DNA of 64,000 bases from Candidatus Sediminicultor quartus. GTDB lineage: Bacteria > Atribacterota > Phoenicimicrobiia > Phoenicimicrobiales > Phoenicimicrobiaceae. Location: assembly GCA_011056645.1 (NCBI GenBank), contig DSEL01000184.1, positions 7,699 to 71,698 on the forward strand, in the 5' to 3' direction. The translations under genes and the position numbers were made by a program. The first letter of the stretch is position 1. Every line of letters starts with the position of its first letter. The notes beneath the pieces are model-generated. The model searched no databases, was not told where the DNA came from, and saw nothing but the letters and a program-made list of their open reading frames with translations. Of the stretch, positions 3,054-36,960 are shown one piece after another.

Positions 3054-4298
3054 ATGATTCAACAAAATAGGATTTTTTTAACAATTTTAATCATTTTGTT
3101 GCTTTCTACTTCTGTATTAGCCGGAAGTTTTTCCGGTACTTTAACTTATTCCGGGCAATATAATTTTGCCCAAGATGAGCTGTCAAATACTCTAAATTTG
3201 GACCTTGACTATATTCATAGCCTCACCGACGATATCTTTGTAGAGGGAGATCTGCTCATTAGATATTCTGACAGTTCTTCTACCAATCCTCTGATGATTG
3301 TACCCAAGGAACTGTATATTGGCACTTATGACCTTATTATTCCTAATTTAGATTTAAACGCAGGCAGGCTGATTGTAAGCTGGGGTTCATCGGATATGTT
3401 TAGCCCTTTGGATAACTTTAATCCTTCGCCTCCCGGGATATCTTTTGCGGATAGATCCTCCAGAAAGAGCGGAGTCTGGGCGGTTGATGCAACTTATTAT
3501 CTCAATGATATCACCTATCTGCAGGGACTATATCTTCCTCATTTTACTCCCTCATTCATGCCTGCAGGGTATGAAGAACAATTATATCTTTCCATGTTTT
3601 CTCCGGGATTTCAGGCACAGGGAATAGAAATAGATTCTATTAATTTAGACCGTAGTCTTCCCAAAAAACCAGCATGGGGAGTGAAACTGGGAAGAAGTTT
3701 TTCTACTTTTGATGCAGCGATCAGTTATTATAACGGATATTATCCCTTTGCTTATCCTGCGTCGGTAGAGCTCACTCCCGGAACTTCCGGGACATCTTTG
3801 AATTTAGGGTTGGAGTATCCCAAGAGAGATATCTTTGGATTTGAATTCCAGGGAGATTTCCCGGGGATTGAAGGGGCTACTTTAAGAGGGGATTTAGCCT
3901 ATATCATCCCACAACCCTGGCAAGTACAGGGTGAAGATATGCTAAAAGATCCTTACCTGAAAGCAATAATTGGTGCGGATTATACTACTTCTTTTGACCT
4001 CTACCTGAATGTAGCTTTTATTTGGGGATTTATCCTTGAAGAAGGAAAGCAATGTTCCCCTTATATTTTACTAAATGCCGAAAAAGACTTGAAAGATTCC
4101 AAGCTCACTCCGAATTATGTAGGAGTAATAAACCTTCAAGACGGAAGCATGATAAATTCTCTCGGTGCCAGTTATGATTTCACCGATGATTTTTCAATGA
4201 CCCTCTCTTACGTTAAGATTTTTGGGGACCAGGATTCAAAGCTGGGGCAGGTAAAAAGCGCAGAGGGATTATATGTCTCAGCAGAGTGGTGTTTCTAA
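3054..4298 (+). CDS. secreted hypothetical protein, possibly outer-membrane beta-rich, associated with the MMPL exporter
   Basis: GAGGAGG RBS 6 nt upstream and a clear signal peptide (LLLSTSVLAGS). Rich in aromatic residues, Gly and Ser. No recognisable catalytic motif. Confidence 0.4.
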   Translation: MIQQNRIFLTILIILLLSTSVLAGSFSGTLTYSGQYNFAQDELSNTLNLDLDYIHSLTDDIFVEGDLLIRYSDSSSTNPLMIVPKELYIGTYDLIIPNLDLNAGRLIVSWGSSDMFSPLDNFNPSPPGISFADRSSRKSGVWAVDATYYLNDITYLQGLYLPHFTPSFMPAGYEEQLYLSMFSPGFQAQGIEIDSINLDRSLPKKPAWGVKLGRSFSTFDAAISYYNGYYPFAYPASVELTPGTSGTSLNLGLEYPKRDIFGFEFQGDFPGIEGATLRGDLAYIIPQPWQVQGEDMLKDPYLKAIIGADYTTSFDLYLNVAFIWGFILEEGKQCSPYILLNAEKDLKDSKLTPNYVGVINLQDGSMINSLGASYDFTDDFSMTLSYVKIFGDQDSKLGQVKSAEGLYVSAEWCF

Positions 4299-4885
4299 TG
4301 GATAGTGAAAAGATGAACAAAAAAGAAAAAATTTTAGAGGCTGCCCGGGATACGTTTTTTAGCAAGAGCTTCTACGAAGCCACCATGGATGATATCGCTC
4401 AGCTTTCCGGAATAAAAAAATCTACTATCTATTACTATTTTCCTTCTAAAATAGATTTGGCTTCAGAGCTTTTGGAGCAACATATAAAAAATATTTTTGA
4501 AAAGACCAGCGAAATAATTGATACCACCCATAATATTAAACTACGGATTAAAATGATCATAGACTTTTATCTAAAACTTTTAGCAGAAAATTCCAAAATA
4601 TTTATTATTCTGGAAAGAATTGCTTATGATTTTATGCAAAAAGACCACAGCAAAAAAAAGATAAATAAGCTCTTCGAAAAGTTAAGAGACAAACAGAAGA
4701 AATTGAGTGACCTCTTTGGAGACATCATCTTATCTTCCGGTAAAAAAGTAAGCGGAGATCTATTTTTATATTCCCTGGTTGCTGCCCTGGGAAGAGTTAT
4801 TTTTGAAAATGTGTCTCAAGGAAGAACTCCCAAGAAAGAGGATCTCCTGGCTATCGGCGATATTTTCATCGCCTCAGTAAATTGA
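4298..4885 (+). CDS. TetR/AcrR family transcriptional regulator
   Basis: N-terminal TetR HTH (ILEAARDTFFSKSFYEATMDDIAQLSGIKKSTIYYYFPSK). The start overlaps the preceding stop as TAATG. The TGA stop lies inside REP copy 4883-4909. Confidence 0.8.
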   Translation: MDSEKMNKKEKILEAARDTFFSKSFYEATMDDIAQLSGIKKSTIYYYFPSKIDLASELLEQHIKNIFEKTSEIIDTTHNIKLRIKMIIDFYLKLLAENSKIFIILERIAYDFMQKDHSKKKINKLFEKLRDKQKKLSDLFGDIILSSGKKVSGDLFLYSLVAALGRVIFENVSQGRTPKKEDLLAIGDIFIASVN

Positions 4886-4909
4886 TACAGAGAACCGTCC
4901 CCTGTATCA
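4883..4909 (+). repeat. REP-like 27-bp imperfect palindrome (TGATACAGAGAACCGTCCCCTGTATCA), copy 1
   Basis: 8-bp perfect inverted arms TGATACAG/CTGTATCA around an asymmetric 11-nt core. Identical to the copies at 9081 and 29397 and the reverse complement of 28476. Sits exactly between the convergent stops of the TetR and potC-like genes. Confidence 0.85.
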
Positions 4910-4912
4910 ATT

Positions 4913-5767
4913 CTATTCTTCTTTGCTTTTGAAATAAAAATTTCCGACGGCAATAATGGAAACAGTTACGATTAAAATAAAAGATATGGCATTGATAACC
5001 GGGGTAGACCCATCTCTTACCTGTTGATATAAAATGATAGGCAGGGTGGGTTGAGAGCTAATCAGGAATGTGGTGGTATTAAAATTCTCAAAGGACATCA
5101 GGAAGGCTATGGCTGCACCTCCTATAACCGAGGGCTTGAGATACTGAAGGGTAATAAACCAGATAACCGAAAATCGATTGGCGCCAAGATCGGACGCGGC
5201 TTCTTCAAGCGTTCTATCAAATTTTCTTAACCTTGCTGAAATAACCATGGTTACGATAGTGGTAATAAAGGAAAACTGACCAAGAACTATAAGCCAGAAA
5301 CCTGGCCTTAGTATTTTTATATCAATCCCAAAAACATTCTCAATAAATAATCCTACTGTAGTCGAGAATAAAAGTATGGATATACCGAGAATAACTCCCG
5401 GAATAACCAAGGGAGCGATCATTAAGAAATATAAAGCACCCTTAAATTTGAAATCTTCCTGTTCAAAGAGAAAAGCAGCCATCGTTCCGACAATAGTTGA
5501 AAAGATAGAAACTGAAATTGCTACTTTAAAGGAAGTAGCTATCGCCCTTAAATTCATTTTGTCATAAAATATACCAATTTTTTCAGGCCCTTTCCCAAAA
5601 AACCAATCAAAAGTAAACCCTTTCCAGGGCAAAGAGGGGAACATAGAATCATTAAAGGCCAGAATCATGGTGATAACCAGCGGAGCAAATAGAAAAATAA
5701 AATAGAAAAGTGCAAAAAGCCTGTAACCCGATAAATAACTTTTAGAATTTGGTAATGTTCTTATCAT
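4913..5767 (-). CDS. potC: ABC transporter permease, spermidine/putrescine PotC-like
   Basis: Six-TM permease with an EAA loop (EEAASDLGANRFSVIWFITLQYLKP). Last gene of a binding-protein/ATPase/permease/permease operon. Confidence 0.7.
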   Translation of the reverse strand: MIRTLPNSKSYLSGYRLFALFYFIFLFAPLVITMILAFNDSMFPSLPWKGFTFDWFFGKGPEKIGIFYDKMNLRAIATSFKVAISVSIFSTIVGTMAAFLFEQEDFKFKGALYFLMIAPLVIPGVILGISILLFSTTVGLFIENVFGIDIKILRPGFWLIVLGQFSFITTIVTMVISARLRKFDRTLEEAASDLGANRFSVIWFITLQYLKPSVIGGAAIAFLMSFENFNTTTFLISSQPTLPIILYQQVRDGSTPVINAISFILIVTVSIIAVGNFYFKSKEE

Positions 5768-6630
5768 CTAACTACCTTCCTGAAATCCTGTTTGGTTACT
5801 TTCAAGGCAATCCATATTATTAAAGAGGATAAGGCTAACAATAAAAACCCAAAGGCAGCTCCCTGATTCCAATTAAAATAAGTGATGATCTGATTGTATA
5901 TCTGTTCGGTAAACCATAGAGAGTTCTTGCCCCCCATGAGTTTCGGGGTCAAATAGCTGCCAAGAACCAGCATAAATACAATGATACTTCCGGACATGAT
6001 GCCAGGCATTGAATAGGGAATAATGATTTCACGCCAGATGGCTATTTTCTTTGCTCCCAGGTCATAGGCTGCTTCGATAAGAGAATCATCAAGACTTTCC
6101 ATAACCCCTATAATTGGTATAATCATAAAAAGCATGGAGGTATAAACCAGCCCCATTATCATGGTAATATCATTATAGAGCATCTCTGTGGGCTGTTTGA
6201 ATAAACCGATACCTACCAAAAAATGGTTAAGTACTCCGCTTTCCCGCAAAAGTATCATCCACCCGTAAACTCTGATTAATTCACTAACCCAAAAAGGAAC
6301 TAAAAGCAAAACCGATAATACTCCCTGTATTCTTAAATTAACAACTTTAGTAATAAAAAAGGCGATAGGAAGCGCAATAATCAGTACAATAAAGGTTACC
6401 ATTATAGAATACATTGCGGTCCGTACGAAGGTAAGCCAATAAATCGGTTCGGTAAAAAAAGCGCTATAATTTTTAAGGGTAAATCCTGACCTTCCCAAGA
6501 ATGACATTCTGAGCAACTCAAGATGCGGAAGTACGATCAATAAAAATAACCATAAAAAAACCGGGATAAAGAATATAACAAAACTCCATCTTATTTTAGA
6601 TATTTTAGAGCTCCTCATATATCTTACCAT
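5764..6630 (-). CDS. potB: ABC transporter permease, spermidine/putrescine PotB-like
   Basis: Permease with an EAA motif (IEAAYDLGAKKIAIWREIIIPYS). Overlaps its neighbours by 4 nt at both ends, consistent with translational coupling. Confidence 0.7.
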   Translation of the reverse strand: MVRYMRSSKISKIRWSFVIFFIPVFLWLFLLIVLPHLELLRMSFLGRSGFTLKNYSAFFTEPIYWLTFVRTAMYSIMVTFIVLIIALPIAFFITKVVNLRIQGVLSVLLLVPFWVSELIRVYGWMILLRESGVLNHFLVGIGLFKQPTEMLYNDITMIMGLVYTSMLFMIIPIIGVMESLDDSLIEAAYDLGAKKIAIWREIIIPYSMPGIMSGSIIVFMLVLGSYLTPKLMGGKNSLWFTEQIYNQIITYFNWNQGAAFGFLLLALSSLIIWIALKVTKQDFRKVVR

Positions 6631-7720
6631 CCGTTTTATTGAAGCATACCGCAGCTTCAGGATCCCAACCTATTTTTATCTTGTCCTTGGCTTTGATATA
6701 ATCAAATTGCTTGTTCTGCGGCAGAGAGACAATAAGCTCTTGTTCTGAATTTTCAGGTACGACCAGCAGCTTGCTGTTCGCGCCATCAAAGAGTATTGCC
6801 TTGACACTAACATTCAAGACGTTCAGATTACTTTGCCCCATCTTTGGATTAATAATTACCGCCTCCGGCCTGACGTACAATTCGATAAGATCATCATCCT
6901 TTTTCAAATCAATAGGCTTGCTTAATTTAAAGCTTTTACCGTCTACGGTATCAGCGAAAAAGTTGCCCTTTTCATCTTTTCTTTGTTTTACAATAAATTT
7001 ATTATTTTTTCCTACAAATTGAGCAACAAAAGCAGAAGAAGGATTGGCATAAAGGTGTTGAGGGGTATCAAGTTGTTCAAAATGTCCGGTATTCATGACC
7101 GCTACATAGTCGCTCATCACCATAGCCTCTGATTGGTCATGGGTTATATATACAAAGGTGGTACCTACTTCCACCTGAAGTTTTTTGAGCTCAATTTTCA
7201 TATGCTCTCTCAATTTGGCATCAAGAGCTCCCAGGGGTTCATCCAGAAGAAGAGCCGATGGTTCAAGAACCAAGCATCGCGCTATAGCCACTCTTTGTTT
7301 TTGTCCGCCGGAAAGTTGAGTAATTTTTTTTAATCCATAATCCGGAAGCCCTACCCTTCCCAACATTGAATTGACTTTTTTTTCGACACTTTTACCTTTT
7401 TCCCCTCTCCTTCGAAGGCCAAAAGCAATATTGTCATGAACATTCATCATGGGAAATAAAGCAAGGTTTTGAAAAATAAGGTTTACCGGTCTTTTATTGG
7501 CTTCAATTCCCAGCATATTCTTTCCGCCAATTTCGACTGTTCCGCTTGTTGGTTGAAGAAAACCGGCAATCATTCTTAATAAGGTAGTTTTTCCGCAACC
7601 AGAAGGTCCCAGTATTGAGAAAAATTTTCCGTCCTCAACATCGAAGGAAACCTTATCCACGGCCGTGAAATGACCAAATTTTTTAGAAATATTTTTTACA
7701 GATAGTGCAATCTTCTGCAT
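6605..7720 (-). CDS. potA: ABC transporter ATP-binding protein, PotA-like with a C-terminal TOBE domain
   Basis: Walker A GPSGCGKTT, ABC signature LSGGQKQRVAIARCL and Walker B LLLDEPLGALD, plus a transport-associated OB-fold C-terminal region. Confidence 0.85.
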   Translation of the reverse strand: MQKIALSVKNISKKFGHFTAVDKVSFDVEDGKFFSILGPSGCGKTTLLRMIAGFLQPTSGTVEIGGKNMLGIEANKRPVNLIFQNLALFPMMNVHDNIAFGLRRRGEKGKSVEKKVNSMLGRVGLPDYGLKKITQLSGGQKQRVAIARCLVLEPSALLLDEPLGALDAKLREHMKIELKKLQVEVGTTFVYITHDQSEAMVMSDYVAVMNTGHFEQLDTPQHLYANPSSAFVAQFVGKNNKFIVKQRKDEKGNFFADTVDGKSFKLSKPIDLKKDDDLIELYVRPEAVIINPKMGQSNLNVLNVSVKAILFDGANSKLLVVPENSEQELIVSLPQNKQFDYIKAKDKIKIGWDPEAAVCFNKTDGKIYEEL

Positions 7721-7759
7721 TGTAGCACCTTCCGTGCATCCATATTTATTATAAAAGAG

Positions 7760-7787
7760 AAGCAGGCAGTGTTTTCACTGCCTGCTT
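7760..7787 (-). promoter_or_regulatory. intra-operon stem-loop (12-bp stem) between the binding-protein gene and the ATPase gene
   Basis: AAGCAGGCAGTG-tttt-CACTGCCTGCTT, immediately after the potD-like stop. On the minus strand it is followed by the U-rich run CUCUUUUAUAAUAAAU. This is the classic attenuator/mRNA stabiliser found 3' of binding-protein genes. Confidence 0.55.
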
Positions 7788-7794
7788 AATTTAT

Positions 7795-8883
7795 TTATTT
7801 TGCAGCTTGAATTCTATCCATTACTTTACCTTCCATTTCTTCAAGTCCTGGAGGTACGGTGGGATACCAGTTTATATTCGCAAGAACTTCGGGAGGTAAT
7901 CCTCGGGCAAAGTTGTCGGCAATTTCCGGATCAAGATATTTTCCGGCATCTTTTGAGGCTGTGCCATAGGTTTCTACATTGGTAAACACTGCTGCATTTT
8001 CCGGTCTAAGTATAAAGTTTATCCATTTATAAGCGCCTTCAACATTTTCAGATTTTGCCGGAATGGCAAAGGTATCAACCCATGCCAATGCACCACTGGT
8101 CGGAGCAAGATAATCGATATTTGGATTTTCCTTATGAAGCTTCCATCCTGCTTGCTCCCATGCCATGGCTGCCCAAACTTCACCTGATCTCATTGATTCA
8201 AGCAATTGATCACCGTTGTCCCAATAATTTCTTAGAACAGCCTTCCCGGCAATAAGCTTTTTGGCAATTTCATCAAGAAATTTTTGATAACCTACCGGGT
8301 CATTGTATAGAGCAAAGGGATCGTATCCGAATGAAAATCCCATGGCAATAAGTGTAGGTCTTTTCATCCTGTAGGAAACTCTTCCGGTATATTTCGGGTC
8401 AAGTAAATCTTTGTAATCTTTTACATCCGGTGCTTTTTCAAAGTTAACCACCAGACCTGAGGTGCCATAAACATGGGGCACTGCATAAGATTTACCATCA
8501 ACAAGGGTATTCTTTTTAACGGCTTCAACCAAAGAAGGATCAAGCTGGTCAAGATTCACTTTGGAATAATCGATCGGTTGATAAATACCATACTCAGCCA
8601 CTACAGAAGAAATTCTATCCTGTGAAGGTTGTGCAAGATCAAAGCCGCCGCCTCTGGTAGCCCTTAATTTTGAGATCATCTCCTCGTTATTACTCAGAAT
8701 AACCTGAACTTCTATCCCTGTCTCTTCTTTAAACTTTGCTACAAGCTCTTCCGGTGCATAACCTGCCCAGGTAATAAGACGTAATACATTGGGAGCCGAT
8801 AGCGCTATGATCTGACTACCGACACCGAAAAGCACTAAAGATACCAGTAACAAAAACACTGTCAATTTAATGGTCTTTTTCAT
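7795..8883 (-). CDS. potD: polyamine-type ABC transporter periplasmic substrate-binding protein (PotD/PotF family)
   Basis: Signal peptide (MKKTIKLTVFLLLVSLVLF) and a family-1 solute-binding fold. The start was chosen at the ATG at 8883, preceded by a GGAGG RBS. The longer ORF reaching 8937 would run through a promoter-like palindrome. Confidence 0.7.
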   Translation of the reverse strand: MKKTIKLTVFLLLVSLVLFGVGSQIIALSAPNVLRLITWAGYAPEELVAKFKEETGIEVQVILSNNEEMISKLRATRGGGFDLAQPSQDRISSVVAEYGIYQPIDYSKVNLDQLDPSLVEAVKKNTLVDGKSYAVPHVYGTSGLVVNFEKAPDVKDYKDLLDPKYTGRVSYRMKRPTLIAMGFSFGYDPFALYNDPVGYQKFLDEIAKKLIAGKAVLRNYWDNGDQLLESMRSGEVWAAMAWEQAGWKLHKENPNIDYLAPTSGALAWVDTFAIPAKSENVEGAYKWINFILRPENAAVFTNVETYGTASKDAGKYLDPEIADNFARGLPPEVLANINWYPTVPPGLEEMEGKVMDRIQAAK

Positions 8884-8917
8884 TATTTTCCTCCATGTAA
8901 AATTTTTTTTAATTAAT

Positions 8918-8937
8918 TTGATGCTTGATGCCATCAA
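8918..8937. promoter_or_regulatory. direct-plus-inverted TTGATG repeat (TTGATGcTTGATGcCATCAA) in the potD-like promoter region
   Basis: Seen directly, 35-54 nt upstream of the 8883 start codon on the coding strand. The TTGATG-g-CATCAA 6-1-6 palindrome could be a -35 element plus an operator. Confidence 0.3.
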
Positions 8938-9080
8938 TTATGAGAGACACGATGTCTCCGAAAAATAAATTTTACTTGTTCTGCCTCCCCCCTCCTTTCT
9001 TTCTTGTTTTACGGTTTGTTTTCCCTCATCTACGGTACTATGATTGCTTTATATTACGGGTGGCAAGCCTCTCGTGGAAA

Positions 9081-9107
9081 TGATACAGAGAACCGTCCCC
9101 TGTATCA
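9081..9107 (+). repeat. REP-like 27-bp palindrome, copy 2
   Basis: Exact copy of TGATACAGAGAACCGTCCCCTGTATCA, ending 1 nt before the TAA stop of the kinase gene (9109-9111) and upstream of the potD-like promoter. Confidence 0.85.
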
Positions 9108-9108
9108 T

Positions 9109-10053
9109 TTATACACCATATTCTTCCTGAATAAATTTGATATTATTATGAGCATTTTCAAATTTCACTTTTCCGTAATTATAGAAATCGAATTTGATCT
9201 TGGAAATATTATTCTGGATCATGCTCCAAATGAACCAGAAAATGTCGGGAAAGGGTTTAAAAATATCAATCAGGTAGAGGGTTTTTTCGAACTCCTTGTC
9301 CTCACAGTAATGCCTTACTATACTTTTCTCTACATCTCGCGGAACTAAAATCTCCTGGAACATATCCGCCAGATCATAATAGCGAGGTGCCATCCCCGCA
9401 TACTCCCAGTCAATAAGATACATCGGTTCAGGATATCTTCCCCGATCAGCCTCATCTACCAGCACGAAATTATCCGCTAACAGATCATTATGGCTTGCCG
9501 TGTATTCACTCTCCGGAATATTGATCGTTTCGGCGATCTTTTCCAGGTTTTTAATTATACCATCAATATCAAACTCCGGACAACTAATCTCCAGATTGTT
9601 TAAGATCCTGTGCATCTCTTTCACTTTATTTAAAGGATTAAAGATTTGAGGGAACTCAACTCCACTTTGGTGAATTTTTCGTATTGGCCTGGCAATCTTT
9701 TCATGAAGCTCTTCCTTTAAGAAATCAGAGTTTTTTAATACATACCCCGGAATAAATTCTACAATGGTAACCCTATATTCAGGCATATATTTTACTAGTT
9801 TAGGTGAAATGCCTACCTTGGCTACTCTCCTCATGATTTCTGCTACGATGCTTCTACTAATGAAAGTCTCTGTTTTATCACCGTAGATTCTTATGGTAAG
9901 ATCCCCTTTTTCAGAACGCACCCGATACAATTTATTAGTAATACCACCACTTAATACACCTATCTTTATTGCTGTGTTCTTCCACTCTGGCATGAGTTTA
10001 AAAAATAGTTTTTCGGTAAACTCTACATCTAAAAGATTCGTGACTTCGCTCAT
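9109..10053 (-). CDS. choline/ethanolamine kinase family phosphotransferase (APH-fold)
   Basis: Brenner motif HNDLLADNFVL and the choline-kinase motif LIDWEYAGMAPRYYDLADMFQE. GGAGG RBS. Last gene of an ABC importer operon. Confidence 0.65.
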   Translation of the reverse strand: MSEVTNLLDVEFTEKLFFKLMPEWKNTAIKIGVLSGGITNKLYRVRSEKGDLTIRIYGDKTETFISRSIVAEIMRRVAKVGISPKLVKYMPEYRVTIVEFIPGYVLKNSDFLKEELHEKIARPIRKIHQSGVEFPQIFNPLNKVKEMHRILNNLEISCPEFDIDGIIKNLEKIAETINIPESEYTASHNDLLADNFVLVDEADRGRYPEPMYLIDWEYAGMAPRYYDLADMFQEILVPRDVEKSIVRHYCEDKEFEKTLYLIDIFKPFPDIFWFIWSMIQNNISKIKFDFYNYGKVKFENAHNNIKFIQEEYGV

Positions 10054-26647: not shown

Positions 26648-28453
26648 TTAAGAATCCCCCAGGACGGCAATGGCCGCTCCGCCAATACCTATATGGATAC
26701 TCAAGGCAGGCGATGCTTCGGCGATCATTATTTTTGAAGTATTAAAGATGGCTCGAATTTTATTACTATACCATCCAGCCAATTCCGGTGCTGCTACATG
26801 AGCAATTGCAAAACGGGGATTTTTAACTCTTGTAGCAAACTGAATCGCCAAATCTACGGTCTTAAGAATTACTCTTTTTTGCCCTATCACTTTAGCTGCT
26901 TCGACAATGTTACCGTCAGAATTTAGCGTTAAAATGGGTTTCAGGTTAAGAAGCGTACCCAGAATTCCTTTGGCGATATTCAAGCGCCCGCTACGCATCA
27001 AATATTTTAAGGTAGGTATGCTGATAAAGATTTTAACATTTTCGGTAGCATCTTTTATCCGATCAATGATTTCTTCAAGGTTAAGTCTTTCTTGAATTAA
27101 TTGAGCTGCCTCGGCCACTAATAATCCCAAAGCAACCGAACTTGTTTTGCTATTTACAATGTGAATTCTATTGCTGTAATGCTTATCCTGGCAGCCCATA
27201 CGCGCACCCTGGATCGTTCCGCTTAATTTTTCAGAGATATGTAAAGAAATTATCGATTGATATTTTTGGACAATTTCCTTATAAGCTTCGGCAAAAAAAG
27301 CGGGAGGAGGCTGGGAAGTGGACAGCTTTTCCTGCGAGGTCTCTAAAATATGAATAAAATCTTTTGGTTTAATTTCTACCTGGTCCAAATAACTCTTTTC
27401 CCCAACCTGAATCACGACGGGTACAACTTTAATATTATATTTTTTAATGATCTCCAGCGGTAAATCACAAGTTGAATCGGTAACCAATCCTATACTTTCT
27501 CCGTGAGCATCCGCTTTAATCTTGGTATGTTGTTTACGCATATCATCAACTTTGGTTTTCACGATAGTTCCGCATTCAGACAATTCAGTAAATACATCCT
27601 CGGGGTTATCGGTGTGAATATGGATATGGGCTTTGTGTTCAGAGCCGGCAATAATCAGTGAATCTCCTAGGGAGGAAAGTTTTTGCCTCACTGTTCCCAG
27701 ATCTAAGTTAATTCCTTCCAGCAAGCATTCAGCACAGAACCGGAAATTAATTCCGGAATCAATTTTATCTAAATTAAAACTCCTTATTCTCTCGCCGGTA
27801 GAGCTAAGTACCTCTAATGATCTTACTTTACCGTATTCAATAAAATTAACGATCCCTTCCAAGATATTAACGAAACCCTGAGCTCCGGCATCAACTACCC
27901 CTGCTCTTTTTAATAGCAGCAGTTTATCGGGCGTTTTAGCCAGGGATTCCTTTGCTTTCGATAATGATTTTTTAAAAAGTTCCACAAAATCAGGGGTATA
28001 GGGAGCATTTTTTACCAGATGCTCCGCCCAGTCTTTCATTACCGTAATAATTGTTCCTTCTTGAGGCTGAGAAATGGCTTTCCGGGCTTGTTCCGCAGCC
28101 TTGATAGCTGCTTGAGCAAAGGATTCTGTGCTAAGACGTACTTTATCCTGGGTTGCTTCTGCCAGGCCTTGAAAAAATTGAGCCAAGATTGCTCCAGAGT
28201 TACCACGTGCTCCCATTAAAGCCGAATCGGCAATCACGCTGCTAACCCTGGCAAAAGAAGCATCTTTACATTTTTTTACCTCTTTTACAATATTGCTCAT
28301 GGTTGCTGCCAGATTCGTACCGGTGTCTCCATCAGCTACCGGAAAAACATTAATATCATTCAGATACTGCTCCATCTGATTGATACGTTGGGCGGAAGTG
28401 ATAATAAAACGCTTGAAGCGGATACCATTTATATATTTGATTTGAATTTTCAT
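26648..28453 (-). CDS. DAK2-domain protein with a C-terminal DegV-like domain (YloV/FakA-like fatty-acid kinase component)
   Basis: N-terminal Dak2 motif (VADGDTGTNLAAT...GARGNSGAILAQF). The C-terminal half resembles DegV (LVTDSTCDLPLEIIKKYNIKVVPV...). Confidence 0.65.
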   Translation of the reverse strand: MKIQIKYINGIRFKRFIITSAQRINQMEQYLNDINVFPVADGDTGTNLAATMSNIVKEVKKCKDASFARVSSVIADSALMGARGNSGAILAQFFQGLAEATQDKVRLSTESFAQAAIKAAEQARKAISQPQEGTIITVMKDWAEHLVKNAPYTPDFVELFKKSLSKAKESLAKTPDKLLLLKRAGVVDAGAQGFVNILEGIVNFIEYGKVRSLEVLSSTGERIRSFNLDKIDSGINFRFCAECLLEGINLDLGTVRQKLSSLGDSLIIAGSEHKAHIHIHTDNPEDVFTELSECGTIVKTKVDDMRKQHTKIKADAHGESIGLVTDSTCDLPLEIIKKYNIKVVPVVIQVGEKSYLDQVEIKPKDFIHILETSQEKLSTSQPPPAFFAEAYKEIVQKYQSIISLHISEKLSGTIQGARMGCQDKHYSNRIHIVNSKTSSVALGLLVAEAAQLIQERLNLEEIIDRIKDATENVKIFISIPTLKYLMRSGRLNIAKGILGTLLNLKPILTLNSDGNIVEAAKVIGQKRVILKTVDLAIQFATRVKNPRFAIAHVAAPELAGWYSNKIRAIFNTSKIMIAEASPALSIHIGIGGAAIAVLGDS

Positions 28454-28475
28454 TTAAAGCATCATCACCCCATTC

Positions 28476-28502
28476 TGATACAGGGGACGGTTCTCTGTAT
28501 CA
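28476..28502 (-). repeat. REP-like 27-bp palindrome, copy 3 (reverse-complement orientation: TGATACAGGGGACGGTTCTCTGTATCA)
   Basis: Exact reverse complement of the other three copies. 6 nt beyond the 3' end of the transposase gene. Confidence 0.85.
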
Positions 28503-28507
28503 TTTTA

Positions 28508-29317
28508 TTATTTTATTATTTGAACTGTTACCGGGCTAACTCTCAAAATATTTGCTATCTCTCGAATGGATAAATTAGAATTCAATTTCAAATAACTTAT
28601 CAGTTTGTTTCTATGAAATTGATACTTTCTTTCTTTTAAATTAGATAAACCAAAGTTATATTCTTTAAAATAATTTTGGATATATTGCTTTGCTCCTTTC
28701 TCATTAATCAAACTGTGGCTATATTTCTTGTCTTCTTCTGGTAATTCAATAATATTGCTTTTTTCTAGTCTATTCTGATGATGGTATCGAACAAATAAAT
28801 CAATCGCTTTGTCTTTATCCGGAGAAAATAAAGATAATATATGTTCAAGCTCAATTAAAAAGTTTTTCTGCGGTAATTTTGCAATATACAAACAGTAACT
28901 GCTCCAAGTATATTCTTCTAAATTATTAACCATAAAGGCATTTAATGGATTGTTATGAATATAACTCAGTACTGCCAATAAATAATTCTCATTTTCAATT
29001 GGTTCACTTTTAAAACGATCTTGAAAAAGATGACCAATCTGCTGATATTTCTTATTGAAGTAATTCACGTAGCTCACATTTATTCTTTTCATTGTCTGGG
29101 AAAGCTGTTCATCTTTTTCTTTAATTAACAGATGGACATGATTATTCATTAAACAATAAGCATAAATTATATATTCCCTTTTTTGTTTTACTTTTTTCAG
29201 TACTTTTATGAACTTGAATCTATCCTCATCTTCTAAAAATATATCTTGTTTCCGATTGCCGCGAATCATAACATGATAAATATTTGTTGAACTTAATTTT
29301 CGAGCTTTTCTTGGCAT
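28508..29317 (-). CDS. REP-associated tyrosine transposase (RAYT; IS200-like Y1/HUH transposase) with C-terminal HTH extension
   Basis: HUH motif (NNHVHLLIKE), a catalytic-Tyr region (LSYIHNNP), WSSY after the core domain, then an extra segment of about 110 aa ending in an HTH (LSIREIANILRVSPVTVQIIK). Confidence 0.7.
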   Translation of the reverse strand: MPRKARKLSSTNIYHVMIRGNRKQDIFLEDEDRFKFIKVLKKVKQKREYIIYAYCLMNNHVHLLIKEKDEQLSQTMKRINVSYVNYFNKKYQQIGHLFQDRFKSEPIENENYLLAVLSYIHNNPLNAFMVNNLEEYTWSSYCLYIAKLPQKNFLIELEHILSLFSPDKDKAIDLFVRYHHQNRLEKSNIIELPEEDKKYSHSLINEKGAKQYIQNYFKEYNFGLSNLKERKYQFHRNKLISYLKLNSNLSIREIANILRVSPVTVQIIK

Positions 29318-29396: not shown

Positions 29397-29423
29397 TGAT
29401 ACAGAGAACCGTCCCCTGTATCA
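29397..29423 (+). repeat. REP-like 27-bp palindrome, copy 4
   Basis: Exact copy. Its last 3 nt (TCA) are the TGA stop codon of addA on the minus strand. Confidence 0.85.
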
Positions 29424-32400
29424 TTTTCCTACAAAATATATGCTGGTTTGTTTCACGGGCTCTCCGGAGATTTCCTGCCATACCCGGTGGTAAAGAGTGA
29501 TCTGCTTTTGATAGACCTCGACTAATTTAGGGTAATCCTTCTCCTGTTCGGGCCGATCAGTTTTGTAATCGATCACTACCCAGCCATCGGCTTCCTTAAA
29601 GACCAGGTCGATCGTCCCAGACAGGATTATAGGGCAGGAATCATGACCCTCTAATTGGCTAAAAAGAGGATGAGCGGGTCCGATATGGAGTGTAAAGGGG
29701 ACTTCGCTATATTTAAACTCTGCTTTTTTTAGACGCTTAAATAAATCACTCACTTTAAATTTTTTGACCAGCTCTTCTAATTCTGCTTTTCTCCGGGGAG
29801 ATATTCCCTGATTTTCCAGAACTTTTTCTATCTGTAAAGACAATAACTGTTCATCAGGCTCTTTCTTCACTAAATAATCAAAGATTTTATGAACGGCAGT
29901 CCCCCAGGCAGTCCCGCCAACATCAATGGTAGTAATCTTTAGGTGTTTTTCTTCATCCTTAAAATCCGTCGGGGTCTTCTCATCATAACTAATTTTAGAT
30001 AGATCCTTCAGCCATTGCCCGCATTCCTTTTGCATTTTTGCATAATCTTCAAGCAAAGATTCTTTTTCTTTGGCTTTTTCTTTTCCTTTTCCTTCTATTT
30101 CCCCCATTTCCCCCGGAGACAACAATTCCGCTTCCGGGACAGCGATATTCATCTCATCTCTCATATTTTTCAATAAAGGCTGCCAGGGATTATGCTTATT
30201 GCCCTTATGATTTAAACTGCTGATAACCAAAAGATTCTTAGCCCGGGTGGCCGCTACATAGAGCAGTCGGATATCCTCTGCTTCATGGTAAGAGGTCTCA
30301 AGCTGACCATAATCATCCCAATTTTTAGGTTGAGCTAATCTTTTCCCTTTATGGTAAGCATTGGAACGGCATACCAAAAAATGGCCGTACGGTTGCTCTC
30401 CCGTTCTTTCCACATGATAAGTTGGTTCATGGACAGCAGTATTATAAGGAATAGCTAAAAATACTACCGGAGATTCCAGGCCTTTAGCTTTATGTAAATT
30501 CATAATCCGGACAGTATTTTCTTCGGTTAGTATATCCAATTCCTCTTCGATCCCGGCTTCTAACATCTTCTCCAATTGGTCTACCATGGCAGCAAATCCT
30601 ATCATTTCTTCTGTCTCTGCTTTTCTTAATTTCTCCAGAATAAAATAGAGCTCCCCGCATCGGTTTAGGTTATAACCTTCTAAACAGGAGTGAGGAAGTA
30701 AGCCTGAATCAATCATGATCTTTTCCATTGTTGTAACCGGTGGCAGTTCTTGAGACCAGAGATGGAATTGTCTCAGCCGGCCAAAAACTCTCCTAAAATT
30801 CTCTTTTAGTTTTGGACTTAGCTTTTCCGGTATCTTTTCATAAAAATCAAATTCTCCGCCTGATTCTTTAAAATGATATAAGTCATCATCAGAAAATCCA
30901 AAGAATATCCCGCGCAGAACGGCGATGATCAGCACCTGATTTTCTATATCCCTCAGTAAGCGAAATAACTTTAATAATTCTTTTACCTGTGGGGATGCAT
31001 TTAAAGAGGCGTATCCTGAGATCGTAAAGGGTATTCCCTGCTCTGCCAGCGTGCGGGCATAGATATCCATCCCTCCTTTATAGCGTAGAAGGATCATAAA
31101 GTCCTTATAAGTGGCTTGCAGTGAAGTACCTGCTTTTATCTCTTCTTCGGTCCGCCCTAATTGAAATCCCTTATCGACCATAAGACGAATAACCCGGGCA
31201 ATCAATTGGGCATCCTGCCGGATCGTATCATTCTTGTTGGATTCTTTTGAAATAATGAGCTGCCTTACCCCGGAAAGATAATGGTTTGGGTCATCTTCCC
31301 GAATGGTCTGCATCGGTGAATATACCGCCTGAAATTTTTCCTGACCACCGGAAAATAATTCTTCAAATAGAGGGTTGAGATAAGAACCGATAGAATGCAG
31401 CGAGCGAAAATTAGCCTGCAATTTTAAAACCTTTCCTCCGCTTCTTTCAATCAACTCCCTTACCCGATTATAGATGGCAATATCTGCCCGACGAAAGCGA
31501 TAGATAGACTGCTGGGGATCCCCTACCACAAATAAGGAACCGGGATGCGGTATCAATTTAGTCCAGTTCTTTTCCTTAAAATCCGAACCGGTAAGATAGA
31601 AGATTATTTCTGCCTGAATAGGGTCGGTATCTTGAAATTCATCTACCAGCAGGCATTTATATTTTTGCTGAAAATATTGGCGTACTTCAGGATGTTCCCT
31701 TAATAGCTGAGAGGTCTTTAAGAGCAAATCCTGAAAATTAAGCATCGAGATCTTCTGGCGCAATTGGTGATAATATTCCACTGCGGGCAGAAGGAATTTG
31801 ATGGTATCGGCATAACAATATTCCCGCCATTGCTGCAAGGTCGGATTAATCACTTTTTCCTGAAGTTCTAAAACAAGGGAATCTCTATACTCTTTGGCCT
31901 TTTCTTTGGAAGTCCAGCGGTTTAAAGTAATATGGTTCGATTTAGGGCTAAAATCACCTGCAAAATTTTCCAGTAATTTTATCTGATTAAAATCTTCTCT
32001 CATATAATCATAAAACCCCTTCATCCTTTTAACGCTTAAAACGGCTTCTTGTAATTGATCATAACCCATTTTCGGTTCTTCCTCCGGGATATATGGGCTG
32101 GCTTCATCACTAAAAGATATGATCTCTTTGACCGCTTTTTTTATATCCGGTTTTGGTAAAACGGGGAAAGAAGGATTAACTTCCGGATAAGCGCACAGCG
32201 TTTTATAACAATCGGTCAGTTCGGAGGGCTTTATGCCTAATTCTTCCAGATGGAGGAGAGAAGGAGATTCTTCTATCTTAAGATTAAGCAGATACCTTTT
32301 CCAGGCTTCTTCTTTCAATAAAATATCATCAAGGTCATCCAGCTCGGCAAATTCCGGGTCGAGCCCGGCTTCGATCGGCCTTTCCCTTAATAGGCGGGCG

Positions 32401-32741
32401 CAAAAAGAATGAATAGTCCCCAGGTAACAGTGCTCAATATTGGAAAGGGCTTCCCGCAAATAAGCCTTTTCCTTTTGGTTTTCTGTTTCACGAAAACTCT
32501 CTTCAATTTTTTTTTGAAACCTTTCTTTTAATTCGATTGCTGCTTTTCTGGTGAAGGTAATAGCGGCCACTTCATCCACTTTAAATTTTCCCGACTTAAT
32601 TAAAGCAGTCATACGCTGGATCAAGCTGGAAGTCTTCCCCGAGCCGGCACTTGCCTCGACTAAAATATTAGTGTTTAATTCTTGTACAATTTTTTCCCGA
32701 GCTTCCTGATCAATTAATTTTTGGGGGGAATGATCATTCAT
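29421..32741 (-). CDS. addA: ATP-dependent helicase/nuclease subunit A (AddA; UvrD-like helicase with C-terminal PD-(D/E)xK nuclease)
   Basis: Walker A (EASAGSGKTSSL), UvrD-type helicase motifs, and a C-terminal RecB-nuclease motif (GTIDLVFKEADGWVVIDYKTD). Confidence 0.8.
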   Translation of the reverse strand: MNDHSPQKLIDQEAREKIVQELNTNILVEASAGSGKTSSLIQRMTALIKSGKFKVDEVAAITFTRKAAIELKERFQKKIEESFRETENQKEKAYLREALSNIEHCYLGTIHSFCARLLRERPIEAGLDPEFAELDDLDDILLKEEAWKRYLLNLKIEESPSLLHLEELGIKPSELTDCYKTLCAYPEVNPSFPVLPKPDIKKAVKEIISFSDEASPYIPEEEPKMGYDQLQEAVLSVKRMKGFYDYMREDFNQIKLLENFAGDFSPKSNHITLNRWTSKEKAKEYRDSLVLELQEKVINPTLQQWREYCYADTIKFLLPAVEYYHQLRQKISMLNFQDLLLKTSQLLREHPEVRQYFQQKYKCLLVDEFQDTDPIQAEIIFYLTGSDFKEKNWTKLIPHPGSLFVVGDPQQSIYRFRRADIAIYNRVRELIERSGGKVLKLQANFRSLHSIGSYLNPLFEELFSGGQEKFQAVYSPMQTIREDDPNHYLSGVRQLIISKESNKNDTIRQDAQLIARVIRLMVDKGFQLGRTEEEIKAGTSLQATYKDFMILLRYKGGMDIYARTLAEQGIPFTISGYASLNASPQVKELLKLFRLLRDIENQVLIIAVLRGIFFGFSDDDLYHFKESGGEFDFYEKIPEKLSPKLKENFRRVFGRLRQFHLWSQELPPVTTMEKIMIDSGLLPHSCLEGYNLNRCGELYFILEKLRKAETEEMIGFAAMVDQLEKMLEAGIEEELDILTEENTVRIMNLHKAKGLESPVVFLAIPYNTAVHEPTYHVERTGEQPYGHFLVCRSNAYHKGKRLAQPKNWDDYGQLETSYHEAEDIRLLYVAATRAKNLLVISSLNHKGNKHNPWQPLLKNMRDEMNIAVPEAELLSPGEMGEIEGKGKEKAKEKESLLEDYAKMQKECGQWLKDLSKISYDEKTPTDFKDEEKHLKITTIDVGGTAWGTAVHKIFDYLVKKEPDEQLLSLQIEKVLENQGISPRRKAELEELVKKFKVSDLFKRLKKAEFKYSEVPFTLHIGPAHPLFSQLEGHDSCPIILSGTIDLVFKEADGWVVIDYKTDRPEQEKDYPKLVEVYQKQITLYHRVWQEISGEPVKQTSIYFVGK

Positions 32742-36351: not shown

Positions 36352-36960
36352 CTATAACTCATAACTATTATAACTTCTGATCTGATTTATTTCTTTGCGT
36401 TCTTTAGGTTGTATTTCGTCAGACATCGGATAGCCTATAGTTATAATAAGTTCAACTCTTATTTGTGGGGGAATATTAACCAGTTTTTTGACCCCCTTTT
36501 CATTAAACCATCCCAGCATACAAGTTCCCAAGCCTTCTTCTGTGGCCTGAAGACAAAGGTGCTCGGCAGTAATTCCGATATCGATTAAACTAAATTGCTT
36601 ATCCTTAAGTATGCTCCCAATTCTACTAAAAAAACTTGGTCTTTCTGAAAGTAAAAGAATTAAAGCAGGTGCTTGCAAAGAAAATCGATTGAAAGATATC
36701 ACTCTATTAAACGTTTTTCTTGCTACTGCTTCTTTTAGTTTCAGGTCATCTATTACAATAAAGCTCCAGGGTTGAGAGTTATTAGCTGAAGGAGCAAGCC
36801 GCGCTGCCTCCAGACAGCTCTCAATCTTCTCCCGCTCAACAGCTTTATCCAAATATTCTCTTACACTTTGTCTTTTTTTTACTAAATCTAAAAATTTCAC
36901 TAAATCCCTCCGGGAACAGAAAACCGTCTTCTGTTCTTTTTTCTTTTTTTGTATTTTCAC
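36352..36960 (-). CDS. nitroreductase family protein
   Basis: RQSVREYL and ARLAPSANNSQPWSFIVI (FMN-nitroreductase motifs). The start overlaps the upstream stop as ATGA. Confidence 0.7.
   Translation of the reverse strand: MKIQKKKKEQKTVFCSRRDLVKFLDLVKKRQSVREYLDKAVEREKIESCLEAARLAPSANNSQPWSFIVIDDLKLKEAVARKTFNRVISFNRFSLQAPALILLLSERPSFFSRIGSILKDKQFSLIDIGITAEHLCLQATEEGLGTCMLGWFNEKGVKKLVNIPPQIRVELIITIGYPMSDEIQPKERKEINQIRSYNSYEL

Follow-up and report, generated by a model that had tools for sequence, protein, structure and literature searches.

The window analysed here is a 64-kb stretch of DNA from a genome of Atribacterota (Caldatribacteriota). It includes a gene for a TetR/AcrR-family regulator (tetR) and a convergent gene for a PotC/PotI-like ABC permease, and a hairpin element lies between them (Table 1). 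The tetR reading frame is open from a GTG codon at 4286, and the ATG at 4298 (MDSEK...) is the putative start, as it fits best to the N-termini of the orthologues. The best NCBIfam models for the permease are PotI and PotC, both under their cut-offs, and its C-terminus (..FKSKEE) is one residue shorter than those of the orthologues (..FKSKEK[D/A/N]).

The element is 27 bp long and reads directly as TGATACAGAGAACCGTCCCCTGTATCA. It has a stem of 8 bp and a loop of 11 nt, and at this site the local flanks AAT/ATT lengthen the stem to 11 bp (4880-4912). The tetR reading frame ends at 4885 including its stop, and this TGA is the first three bases of the element. The TAG stop of the permease gene (CTA at 4913-4915, minus strand) lies 3 nt past the 27-mer and flush against the extended stem. 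The spacer between the two stops is therefore 27 nt (4886-4912), composed of 24 nt of the element and ATT. A sequence-only reading of this DNA had described the element as beginning with the tetR stop, ending 3 nt before the stop of the permease gene, and filling the convergent spacer with its hairpin; the sequence and the ORF coordinates bear out all of this. The window genome thus has one forward singlet copy at the site, flush against both convergent genes. As the termini are TGA...TCA, a stop codon is available to genes approaching from either side. The element is a short, imperfect, stem-loop-forming palindrome in the 20-40 bp range of REPs. As single-stranded DNA, it folds with -8.7 kcal/mol (z = -7.0); the four copies in the window span -5.7 to -9.1 kcal/mol.

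Table 1. Features of the window that are discussed in the text.
Feature	Position	Strand	Remarks
TetR/AcrR-family regulator gene	4298..4885	+	Pfam TetR_N; C-terminus ...IFIASVN, followed by the TGA of the repeat
REP-type hairpin repeat, copy 1	4883..4909	+	Stem TGATACAG/CTGTATCA, loop AGAACCGTCCC; TGA 4883-4885 is the tetR stop
PotC/PotI-like ABC permease gene	4913..5767	-	Pfam BPD_transp_1; last gene of a potDABC-like operon (4913-8937)
Repeat copy 2	9081..9107	+	Between the choline-kinase gene and the region upstream of potD
Repeat copy 3	28476..28502	-	Follows the transposase stop by 5 nt and precedes the fakA-like start by 22 nt
RAYT/TIRYT-like Y1 (HUH) transposase gene	28508..29317	-	269 aa; between inverted copies 3 and 4
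Repeat copy 4	29397..29423	+	Precedes the transposase start codon by 73 nt
AddA/UvrD-like helicase-nuclease gene	29421-32741	-	Stop TGA supplied by copy 4
Diverged repeat variant GGGAACAGAAAACCGTCTTCTGTTCT	36911..36936	+	Resembles the variant at the tetR/potC junction of loci L015 and L016

Copies of the repeat and the transposase gene

Four exact copies of the element are present in the window, while none was found in 100 dinucleotide-preserving shuffles. All four are intergenic and abut gene 3' ends, touching stop codons only. The TAA stop of the choline-kinase gene (9109-9111) is 1 nt from copy 2, and the choline kinase of the window is 2 residues shorter than that of locus L054. The orthologous choK-potD spacers of L050 and L054 are without about 34 nt that contain copy 2, and so copy 2 is, on this comparison, an insertion polymorphism. 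The terminal TCA of copy 4 (29421-29423) is the stop of the addA-like gene.

The exact 25-mer core was found in 10 stretches from species-representative genomes and 68 metagenome stretches. The fetched loci contain 99 copies, 80 of them with distinct flanks, and positions 1 and 27 are T and A in 72 of these 80. The four exact copies are those of a 64-kb window, and fragmented metagenome-assembled genomes (MAGs) of Atribacterota contain only one or two exact copies each. Doublets, partial copies and clusters occur, such as 9 copies within 1.7 kb in L006, a Clostridia MAG. Solo hairpins are more numerous than the transposase gene, and the element is also present in genomes that do not have this tetR. 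Identical repeats are found in distant phyla, among them in Clostridia, which suggests some horizontal transfer. Rfam (E <= 1, positions 4600-5200) contained no family for the element; the one match was a chance SAM-II match inside tetR, scoring 18.7 bits where the gathering score is 44.

The single transposase gene of the window is located 24 kb from copy 1. The protein has the HUH motif (H60 and H62) and a catalytic Tyr119 in YIHNNP, and these three residues are invariant across 25 homologues. It matches Pfam Y1_Tnp with E = 7.6e-16 and scores 74.6 bits against NCBIfam REP_Tyr_transpos, just under the cut-off of 80, and 17.9 bits against the IS200 model, whose cut-off is 55. Phmmer revealed nothing at E <= 0.01 among the PDB sequences. 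Foldseek with the AlphaFold model of the protein (pLDDT 83.5) reached 4ER8, the Escherichia coli TnpAREP bound to a REP hairpin, as the best match (E = 8.6e-9, target TM-score 0.75), and TnpA of IS608 and ISDra2 at about 1e-5. The C-terminal 138 aa show sub-threshold HTH matches only (HTH_24, E = 0.006; HTH_23, E = 0.23) and no match to Bac_DnaA_C, and AlphaFold predicts confident helices for residues 206-267.

This arrangement, a Y1 protein with HUH and Tyr motifs closer to TnpAREP than to IS200 TnpA, flanked by inverted repeat copies (28476, minus; 29397, plus), agrees in these two features with a REPtron. The sequence-only reading had called the element a REP, and the identification as a REP-type repeat holds, given its multiple copies and the inverted pair of them around the RAYT-like Y1 transposase gene of the window. 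The inverted layout also occurs in L006, L089, L090 and L091. The order addA-transposase-fakA is kept in nine Atribacterota loci (82-90% identity), each with the downstream copy, and in the eight such loci examined for it the upstream copy is an arm variant. A second type of transposase paralogue (41% identity) is accompanied by the same repeat in other Atribacterota contigs. Transposases from Sporomusa, Formimonas and Thermotalea (47-49% identity) are flanked by inverted hairpins with the common loop AGAACCGTCCC; their stems differ yet stay paired. In a set of 10 hand-picked sequences, changes on both sides are seen at 5 of 8 stem pairs and 90% of cells are paired, compared with 22-36% in slid controls. 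A hairpin with this conserved loop, as single-stranded DNA, would be the substrate recognised by the transposase. Such a hairpin, conserved in its loop and covarying in its stem, would be a good substrate for the biochemistry of DNA recognition by a non-GTAG Y1 transposase.

Several other identities were considered for the element. A TetR operator, a CRISPR repeat, an integron attC site and a DNA-uptake sequence are ruled out by the association with the transposase, by the lack of arrays with unique spacers, and by the presence of the element in genomes without this tetR.

The 3' end of tetR among relatives

Seventeen TetR sequences were aligned, 16 of which are orthologues at 78-84% identity. 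The proteins terminate at one common position, ...IFIASV(K/N), with a single exception, which reads 11 codons into a repeat. The nucleotides that follow this position differ. L017 has ...SVN followed by a TAA of its own, with no repeat present. In L012, L015, L016 and L028, a TAA belonging to the gene itself precedes a repeat by 2-8 nt, and in some relatives the TAG of tetR overlaps the repeat by one base. In the window, the last codon is AAT (Asn), where AAA or AAG (Lys) is usual, and the stop belongs to the repeat. The sequence-only reading had proposed that the 3' end of the regulator gene was set by the insertion. This part is not borne out: the same C-terminus in 16 of 17 proteins, and in L017 with no repeat, is what that reading had itself named as counting against it, and indicates that the stop position was not made by the repeat. 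On the evidence of the alignment, the TGA of the repeat took the place of the native stop and left the length of TetR unchanged. Together, the relatives form a comparative series of protein-neutral stop takeover: no repeat, own stop with a downstream repeat, overlap by one base, full takeover, and read-through.

Repeats of the same family are present at the tetR 3' end in L011-L016, L018, L028, L034, L050, L054 and L061, and the gene that lies downstream is one of four among these loci. Those of L011, L028, L034, L050, L054 and L061 are inverted doublets with the copies 7-25 nt apart, while those of L012, L015 and L016, the closest relatives for tetR/potC, are singlets of a different variant. 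L020, a short read-assembly contig, matches the tetR of the window without a difference and breaks off within the repeat. Orthologous loci taken from different samples cannot be counted as independent, and these counts overstate the number of events; among the loci fetched from species-representative genomes, none is syntenic with the window. Because family repeats are at the junction in many lineages and with varied downstream genes, the site appears to have been occupied before these lineages split. Judged from these loci, the tetR 3' end is an old repeat site that was repeatedly remodelled, mostly with inverted doublets.

The singlet in the window may be what is left of an ancestral doublet that collapsed by a deletion between its two 5' arms, which share ACAG; this origin is a reconstruction from present-day states, and the singlets of a different variant in L012, L015 and L016 speak against it. 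Takeover of the stop would require a small indel only, as L028 and L034 differ by one AAAAT unit. The addA gene offers a parallel. Its stop is the TGA of the repeat in the window and the TAA of a variant arm, TAACACAG, in L043, L044 and L079, and addA has its own stop in L024, L084, L028 and L029. As side observations on the neighbourhood, pmbA adjoins tetR in L018, L028 and L034, and no repeat was present at the 3' end of the pmbA gene of the window, where one was looked for.

Stop codons and RNA hairpins at the repeat termini

ORFs of at least 100 codons end near 61 distinct element sides. The stop is exactly the terminal TGA in 11 of them, which makes this the modal stop position. Among the ORFs that reach the element, 11 of 16 are in the frame of the TGA, against one third expected (p = 0.004). 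The adjoining ORFs include those for pyruvate kinase-like, HD-like and Mut7-C-like proteins, judged by eye from the sequence with no domain scan.

The sequence-only reading had noted that REPs between convergent genes commonly serve as bidirectional terminators or mRNA stabilisers, which would be a candidate role here. As RNA, the element would fold into a hairpin at the 3' end of each of the two convergent transcripts, a weak one for tetR and a strong one for potC. The predicted energies are -9.6 kcal/mol (centroid) and -12.6 kcal/mol (minimum free energy) for the tetR-sense RNA, and -18.5 kcal/mol for the potC-sense RNA. A consensus terminator scan of positions 4200-5400 did not flag the hairpin, whose 11-nt loop exceeds the limit of 8 nt in that scan. 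The stem is rich in A+T, the loop is long for an intrinsic terminator, the tail in the tetR sense is CUAUUCUUCUUU, and the potC sense is without a U-tract. The RNA hairpin probably serves as a 3'-exonuclease barrier or a weak attenuator and not as a canonical intrinsic terminator. Since each of the two stop codons is located in the stem or directly beside it, translation termination may also be slowed. REPs at most 15 nt from a stop codon reportedly lower translation. At copy 3, the CCCC of the loop is able to pair with the Shine-Dalgarno GGGG of fakA. The orientation with the more stable RNA, GGGGACGGUUCUC, is not preferred beside gene ends (19 versus 20 sides within 30 nt), which argues against strong selection for the stabler RNA form.

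Alternative explanations and known repeat systems

It is likely that the 27-bp element is a copy of a REP-like repeat family that belongs to a RAYT/TIRYT-class Y1 (HUH) transposase, and that its TGA serves as the stop of tetR with the protein end unchanged. A different history would be a single REP freshly inserted at the end of tetR, with its own TGA setting the end of the regulator. The stop codon itself is suggestive of this, as it is the first triplet of the element, TGA, where most relatives have TAA or TAG, and so are the unusual Asn codon before it and copy 2, which points to recent insertions into gene 3' ends in this genome, with the shortened choline kinase beside it. Nevertheless, the terminus of TetR is identical in 16 of the 17 aligned sequences, L017 has both the Asn variant and the end point but no repeat, and same-family repeats are at the junction in the loci listed above. 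As related repeats are found there in nearly all relatives, a fresh insertion at the tetR/potC junction is unlikely, and the orthologue comparison largely refutes it.

The mobility of the repeat could also be doubted, with the element seen as a non-mobile regulatory palindrome under selection, such as a protein operator or a dedicated bidirectional terminator, whose association with the transposase is incidental. The loop is perfectly conserved across phyla, the four copies in the window all abut gene 3' ends, one of the two RNA senses gives a stable hairpin (-18.5 kcal/mol), and the pairing with the fakA Shine-Dalgarno at copy 3 would fit such a role. This is quite improbable, given that homologous Y1 transposases of Atribacterota, Clostridia, Negativicutes and Peptococcaceae-like genomes have inverted copies on their two sides, that presence or absence is polymorphic at choK-potD, and that doublets, partial copies and clusters such as that of L006 occur; moreover, there is no terminator flag, no Rfam family, and no orientation bias relative to the adjacent genes. 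It is very improbable, on the other hand, that the copies are the ends or solo ends of an autonomous IS200/IS605 element, or PATE-like derivatives, instead of a domesticated REP/RAYT system. The protein does share the Y1_Tnp fold and the HUH/Y motifs with the transposases of IS608 and ISDra2, the hairpins at both ends of the gene are presumably single-stranded substrates as in those elements, and the identical sequences in distant phyla suggest horizontal spread. However, the flanking hairpins are inverted, unlike the same-orientation left and right ends of the IS608 type, there is no tnpB, the score against the IS200 model is weak compared with that against REP_Tyr_transpos, and the best structural match is TnpAREP. 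The window has one gene copy in 64 kb, in a synteny kept in nine loci, rather than multiple identical full-length copies, and the solo hairpins outnumber the gene.

The REP-like repeat resembles the REP/BIME repeats and RAYT (TnpAREP) genes in the REPtrons of Escherichia, Pseudomonas and Stenotrophomonas (PMC8266576; PDB 4ER8) in being a short, imperfect, multicopy palindrome at gene 3' ends, in the single Y1/HUH transposase gene between inverted copies, in the predicted structure of the transposase, and in the doublets of the relatives. Classical REPs are defined by a GTAG (or CGTC) tag, which E. coli TnpAREP requires (PMC8266576). The palindrome of the window has no such tag on its 5' side: its arms are TGATACAG...CTGTATCA, T-A-A-A-A is favoured in the 5' flank, where GTAG is absent, and CGTC is inside the loop only. 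The family is characterized by an 11-nt loop of conserved sequence, whereas classical REPs have a conserved tag and stem irregularities. Its transposase is about 100 residues longer (269 aa against about 165 for E. coli TnpAREP), with a helical, putatively HTH-type region at the C-terminus, the host phylum is Atribacterota, and the core sequence is common to several phyla, whereas classical REPs are species-specific.

A RAYT-like protein with a putative HTH-type C-terminal extension, here seen as sub-threshold matches, recalls TIRtrons/TIRYTs (Di Nocera et al. 2013, PMC3733652) and the Y1 subclass 2.1.2 (Quentin et al. 2018, PMC6006769). TIRtron repeats carry GGGGWSAS, and some TIR families are self-complementary and dispersed as single, doublet or clustered copies (PMC3733652). 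The flanking inverted repeats of the window contain, on the coding strand of the transposase, the loop GGGGACGG, which matches this motif at 7 of 8 positions, with G instead of A at position 7. REP-like repeats were not found near subclass 2.1 genes (PMC6006769), whereas the hairpin described here, whose transposase is a candidate member of subclass 2.1.2, has clearly spread, with 4 copies in the 64 kb of the window and 9 within 1.7 kb of L006. The inverted doublets at the tetR junctions of L028, L034, L050, L054, L061 and L011 resemble REPINs, two inverted REPs with a short spacer (Bertels and Rainey 2011, PMC3116915), while the window copy is a singlet.

A REP-type repeat that lies flush between convergent genes and lends its stop triplet is already documented REP behaviour. 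Di Nocera et al. (2013, PMC3733652) described GTAG-REPs whose termini provide TAG stops, as well as repeats no more than 20 bp away from either of two convergent ORFs. As in the window, a repeat terminus doubles as the stop of an ORF and the repeat fills the convergent spacer. The stop of the present family is TGA (TAA in arm variants) and is found at both ends of the palindrome, whereas GTAG-REPs offer TAG at the tagged end only.

A tentative and rather doubtful extension of these comparisons is that they describe an uncharacterised REP system across phyla. An HTH-bearing RAYT subclass would recognise the hairpin with the 11-nt loop AGAACCGTCCC, in a TGA..CAG/CTG..TCA frame kept from Atribacterota to Firmicutes, and the hairpin would have proliferated as REP/REPIN-like copies in Atribacterota and some rumen Clostridia, where its stop-codon ends let copies settle flush against genes or take over native stops. 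If this is true, the stop codons at both ends (TGA, or TAA in arm variants) would be an adaptation for the tight packing of convergent genes. The analysis documents a REP/RAYT-like system in Atribacterota, and a literature search combining Atribacter and repetitive extragenic palindromes found no paper naming both. For annotation, gene ends and stop codons beside these repeats can be trusted, and contig breaks at the repeats, as in L020, are assembly artefacts of the repeat.

The tetR/potC junction in the window and in relatives

The exact 27-mer repeat is present in four copies in the window and in none of 100 dinucleotide-preserving shuffles. Copy 1 has 8-nt ends that are mutually reverse-complementary around an 11-nt loop, and its local flanks AAT and ATT extend the stem to 11 bp. 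Pfam and NCBIfam identified the adjacent genes as those of a TetR_N regulator (tetR) and a PotC/PotI-like permease (potC). The TetR-family ORF ends at 4885, and thus the TGA at 4883-4885 is the tetR stop codon; the permease ORF is convergent (minus strand), and its TAG stop corresponds to CTA at 4913-4915. The stops are 27 nt apart, a spacing composed of 24 nt of the element and ATT. The sequence-only reading, in which the element starts with the tetR stop, ends 3 nt before the potC stop and makes up the spacer, was confirmed in these respects.

Positions of repeat copies, associated genes and compared loci (L handles, DNA loci fetched from other genomes or metagenomes, Atribacterota relatives among them; positions without a handle are window positions)
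Feature	Position (strand)	Arrangement
Copy 1	4883-4909 (+)	TGATACAGAGAACCGTCCCCTGTATCA; stem with flanks, 4880-4912
potC ORF	4913-5767 (-)	
Copy 2	9081-9107 (+)	End 1 nt from choline-kinase (choK) TAA
fakA-like ORF	26648-28453	
Copy 3	28476-28502 (-)	5 nt from transposase TAA; 22 nt upstream of fakA-like start codon
Transposase ORF	28508-29317 (-)	269 aa; bracketed by copies 3 and 4, inverted
Copy 4	29397-29423 (+)	TCA at its end (29421-29423) provides the addA-like ORF with its TGA stop
addA-like ORF	29421-32741 (-)	
Diverged variant GGGAACAGAAAACCGTCTTCTGTTCT	36911-36936	About 20 nt beyond the stop codon of ORF 36957-38972 (-)
tetR end, L017		...GTA AAT TAA, no repeat; stop overlaps that of a different convergent gene
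tetR end, L012, L015, L016		Own TAA (then TAG); variant singlet GGAACAGAGAACCGTTCTCTGTTCC after a further 6-8 nt; potC beyond it
tetR end, L013, L014, L019		Own stop, then decayed half-repeat
tetR end, L018		Own TAA; repeat adjoins convergent pmbA instead
tetR end, L028		AAA TAA, 2 nt, inverted doublet
tetR end, L050, L054		AAA TAG, whose G starts the 25-mer core; followed by a doublet and potC
tetR end, L034, L061	L034:230-300	AAA TGA, the first triplet of the doublet's first repeat, in orientation opposite to copy 1; doublet flush with both convergent genes; last triplet TTA is the pmbA TAA; both stops repeat-supplied
tetR end, L011		First repeat without the TGATA arm; TetR extends 11 codons into the repeat (..KEQGTVLCVNMG)
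tetR end, window and identical L020		AAT TGA, then one forward repeat
choK-potD spacer	L050:141-430; L054:6301-6590	About 34 nt including copy 2 missing
tetR to choline kinase	L019:3583-4525	
25-mer cluster	L006:3212-4930	
Firmicutes hairpins	L089:10799-10826; L090:10799-10826; L091:10805-10835	With upstream partners

A protein search found hundreds of Atribacterota TetR orthologues with 76-84% identity, and tetR junction DNA from relatives was fetched for comparison. The tetR 3' junctions form a graded series across these relatives (Table). Sixteen of 17 aligned TetR sequences share the final residue, ...GDIFIASV(K/N), and length differences are confined to the N-terminus. The same C-terminus is found at L017, which has no repeat; the sequence-only reading had named such a finding as counting against it. 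The repeat supplies the tetR stop physically, as its TGA is the stop codon, but the proposal that its insertion defined the tetR 3' end is not supported, since the native stop of relatives lies there. The loci L028 and L034 differ by one tandem AAAAT copy (GTAAAATAAAATGATACAG versus GTAAAATGATACAG); read from these sequences, a 5-nt slip would be enough to pass the stop from TAA to the repeat TGA in the same frame.

Where potC is the neighbor, relatives have a doublet at L050 and L054 and a symmetric variant singlet at L012, L015, and L016. A deletion between the 5' arms of the first (..ATACAG) and second (..ACACAG) repeats of a doublet would leave exactly TGATACAG plus AGAACCGTCCCCTGTATCA, the forward singlet with its left arm still against tetR, and would reduce a spacer of about 90 nt to 27 nt. 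In four relatives, PotC has one residue more than in the window (..FKSKEK[D/A/N]* versus ..FKSKEE*), which is consistent with trimming on the potC side of the window junction too. This collapse of a doublet is proposed tentatively, at somewhat less than even chances, as the origin of the window singlet, and the main alternative is gene conversion that replaced an older singlet.

Stop codons supplied by the repeat family

The addA gene shows a similar range of arrangements. In the window, its product, a 1106-aa AddA/UvrD-like helicase-nuclease, ends at the TGA provided by copy 4. L043, L044, and L079 use the TAA of an arm variant, TAACACAG, as the stop, with the C-terminus ..FVGK unchanged, and L021 uses the TAA within a partial repeat arm. 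In L024, L084, L028, and L029, addA has its own stop and the repeat starts 1-20 nt beyond.

Of the 80 distinct copies among all fetched copies, 72 have T at position 1 and A at position 27 (62/63 and 59/63, respectively, in A+T-rich loci), and therefore TGA...TCA is part of the element. There were 61 distinct element sides with a nearby ORF end (ORFs of at least 100 codons), and the stop coincided exactly with the terminal TGA, the modal position, in 11. Only five ORFs read through in other frames, so that TGA-frame ORFs account for 11/16 against an expected one third (p = 0.004), or 9/14 when collapsed to gene families (p = 0.017). The TGA-stopped proteins include, as judged by eye, pyruvate kinase-, HD-domain- and Mut7-C-like proteins, a second RAYT paralogue and TetR; one counted ORF, from L052, is probably spurious. 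Stop takeover is general for this repeat family, and it is a phenomenon already described for REPs; the behavior matches the description by Di Nocera et al. (2013, PMC3733652).

The diverged variant lies inside the 5' end assigned mechanically to ORF 36352-36960; the true start of this ORF is probably further downstream.

The transposase and the class of the repeat

The transposase matches Pfam Y1_Tnp (E = 7.6e-16). Against NCBIfam, it scored 74.6 bits with REP_Tyr_transpos, below the cut-off of 80, and only 17.9 bits with the IS200 model. The HUH histidines H60 and H62 and Tyr119 (in YIHNNP) are invariant across 25 homologues. The AlphaFold model (mean pLDDT 83.5) is structurally most similar to 4ER8, a REP hairpin complex of the E. 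coli REP-associated tyrosine transposase (E = 8.6e-9, target TM-score 0.75), and the TnpA proteins of ISDra2 and IS608 rank behind it at about 1e-5. A lone Y1 gene, inverted flanking hairpins and solo copies at gene ends constitute the REPtron layout, and the initial label of a REP copy is thereby justified functionally and strengthened. The protein exceeds E. coli TnpAREP by about 100 residues, and its helical C-terminus shows only weak HTH matches. These features make Y1 subclass 2.1.2 a candidate placement, and this subclass was reported without nearby REP-like repeats (Quentin et al. 2018, PMC6006769).

A second transposase paralogue type, with about 41% identity, equal length and the same C-terminal HTH-like tail, was seen in A+T-rich contigs (L025, L030, L077, L078) beside the same exact 25-mer, and the TGA of the repeat is its own stop.

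Classical REPs have a conserved GTAG tag, which is indispensable to E. coli TnpAREP (PMC8266576), whereas this tag is absent from the window element and the conserved information is in the loop. Inverted hairpins flank homologous transposases (47-49% identity) from Sporomusa rhizae, Formimonas warabiya, and Thermotalea metallivorans. In these Firmicutes hairpins (L089, L090, L091), the loop AGAACCGTCCC is unchanged and the stems are different yet complementary, as in TGAGTCAG-AGAACCGTCCC-CTGACTCA and GCGTGACAG-AGAACCGTCCC-CTGTCACGC. In a small hand-made alignment, five of the eight stem pairs changed on both sides and 90% of cells were paired, against 22-36% in controls in which the partner was shifted by 1-3 columns. 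The loop on the transposase strand, GGGGACGG, matches at 7/8 positions GGGGWSAS, the motif in inverted repeats flanking TIRYT transposases (Di Nocera et al. 2013, PMC3733652). The repeat family represents a new member of the REP/TIRtron kind that lacks GTAG; it occurs in a phylum that has received little study, and its loop is unusually conserved and shared across phyla. For the Sporomusa and Formimonas transposases, the TGA stop doubles as the opening triplet of the hairpin downstream.

The exact 25-nt core was found in 10 stretches of species-representative genomes, including those of Atribacterota MAGs and of rumen Clostridia, Eubacterium, and Lachnospiraceae MAGs (G+C 32 to 58%), and in 68 metagenome stretches. 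A Clostridia MAG locus of 48% G+C (L006) contains nine exact 25-mer copies in 1.7 kb. Most of them form inverted pairs spaced by about 62 nt, and the copies surround a homologue of the transposase that shares 54% identity across 145 aa. The identity of this 25-mer to the Atribacterota element, despite the other phylum and base composition, suggests horizontal transfer or extreme constraint. The sole public contig found with an identical tetR, the read assembly L020 (identical to window 3100-4905), terminates within the repeat. This is a typical repeat-caused assembly break, and such breaks may explain low copy counts in MAGs.

Mobility and candidate functions

Copy 2 is an insertion polymorphism. 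It is missing from the orthologous spacer in L050 and L054, where choline kinase is two residues longer (..EEYSLKI versus ..EEYGV in the window), and this filled-versus-empty comparison shows turnover within the clade. The downstream neighbor of tetR varies among relatives (potC, pmbA, an EamA-family gene, thiS, or another gene, as a C-terminal fragment), and the gene-order break on this side is always at the repeat; thus, the repeat site marks a rearrangement hotspot. Copies 1 and 2 (4883-9107) bracket the whole potDABC-like operon in direct orientation. Between tetR and choline kinase, L019 has a decayed half-repeat, what is left of the 3' part of an EamA-family gene, and a transposase pseudogene (IS3-like by eye), a layout that reads as further evidence of repeated rearrangement at the tetR site.

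By analogy with TnpAREP and IS608 and from established knowledge of the HUH Y1 family, the single-stranded DNA hairpin with the conserved loop is presumably the transposase substrate. In RNA, the tetR transcript is predicted to form an 11-13-bp A+U-rich hairpin containing the stop codon (centroid -9.6, minimum free energy -12.6 kcal/mol), and the potC transcript a 16-bp hairpin with stabilizing G-U pairs, starting directly after the stop (-18.5 kcal/mol). Neither predicted hairpin resembles a canonical intrinsic terminator, and the repeat shows no orientation preference beside gene ends. E. coli REPs no more than 15 nt from a stop codon reportedly stall ribosomes and reduce translation, a result ascribed to Liang, Rudd and Deutscher in 2015; the tetR and potC stops are both within this range of the repeat. 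Classical REP biology (cited within PMC8266576) makes it plausible that the repeat serves as a barrier to 3'-exonucleases or a weak attenuator. In the RNA fold of 28455-28502 (-), the C-rich loop of copy 3 (CCGUCCCC) pairs with the GGGGUGA Shine-Dalgarno region of the fakA-like gene, replacing the repeat's own stem, and thus copy 3 could occlude this ribosome-binding site. The GGGG box upstream of the fakA-like gene is conserved in orthologous loci.
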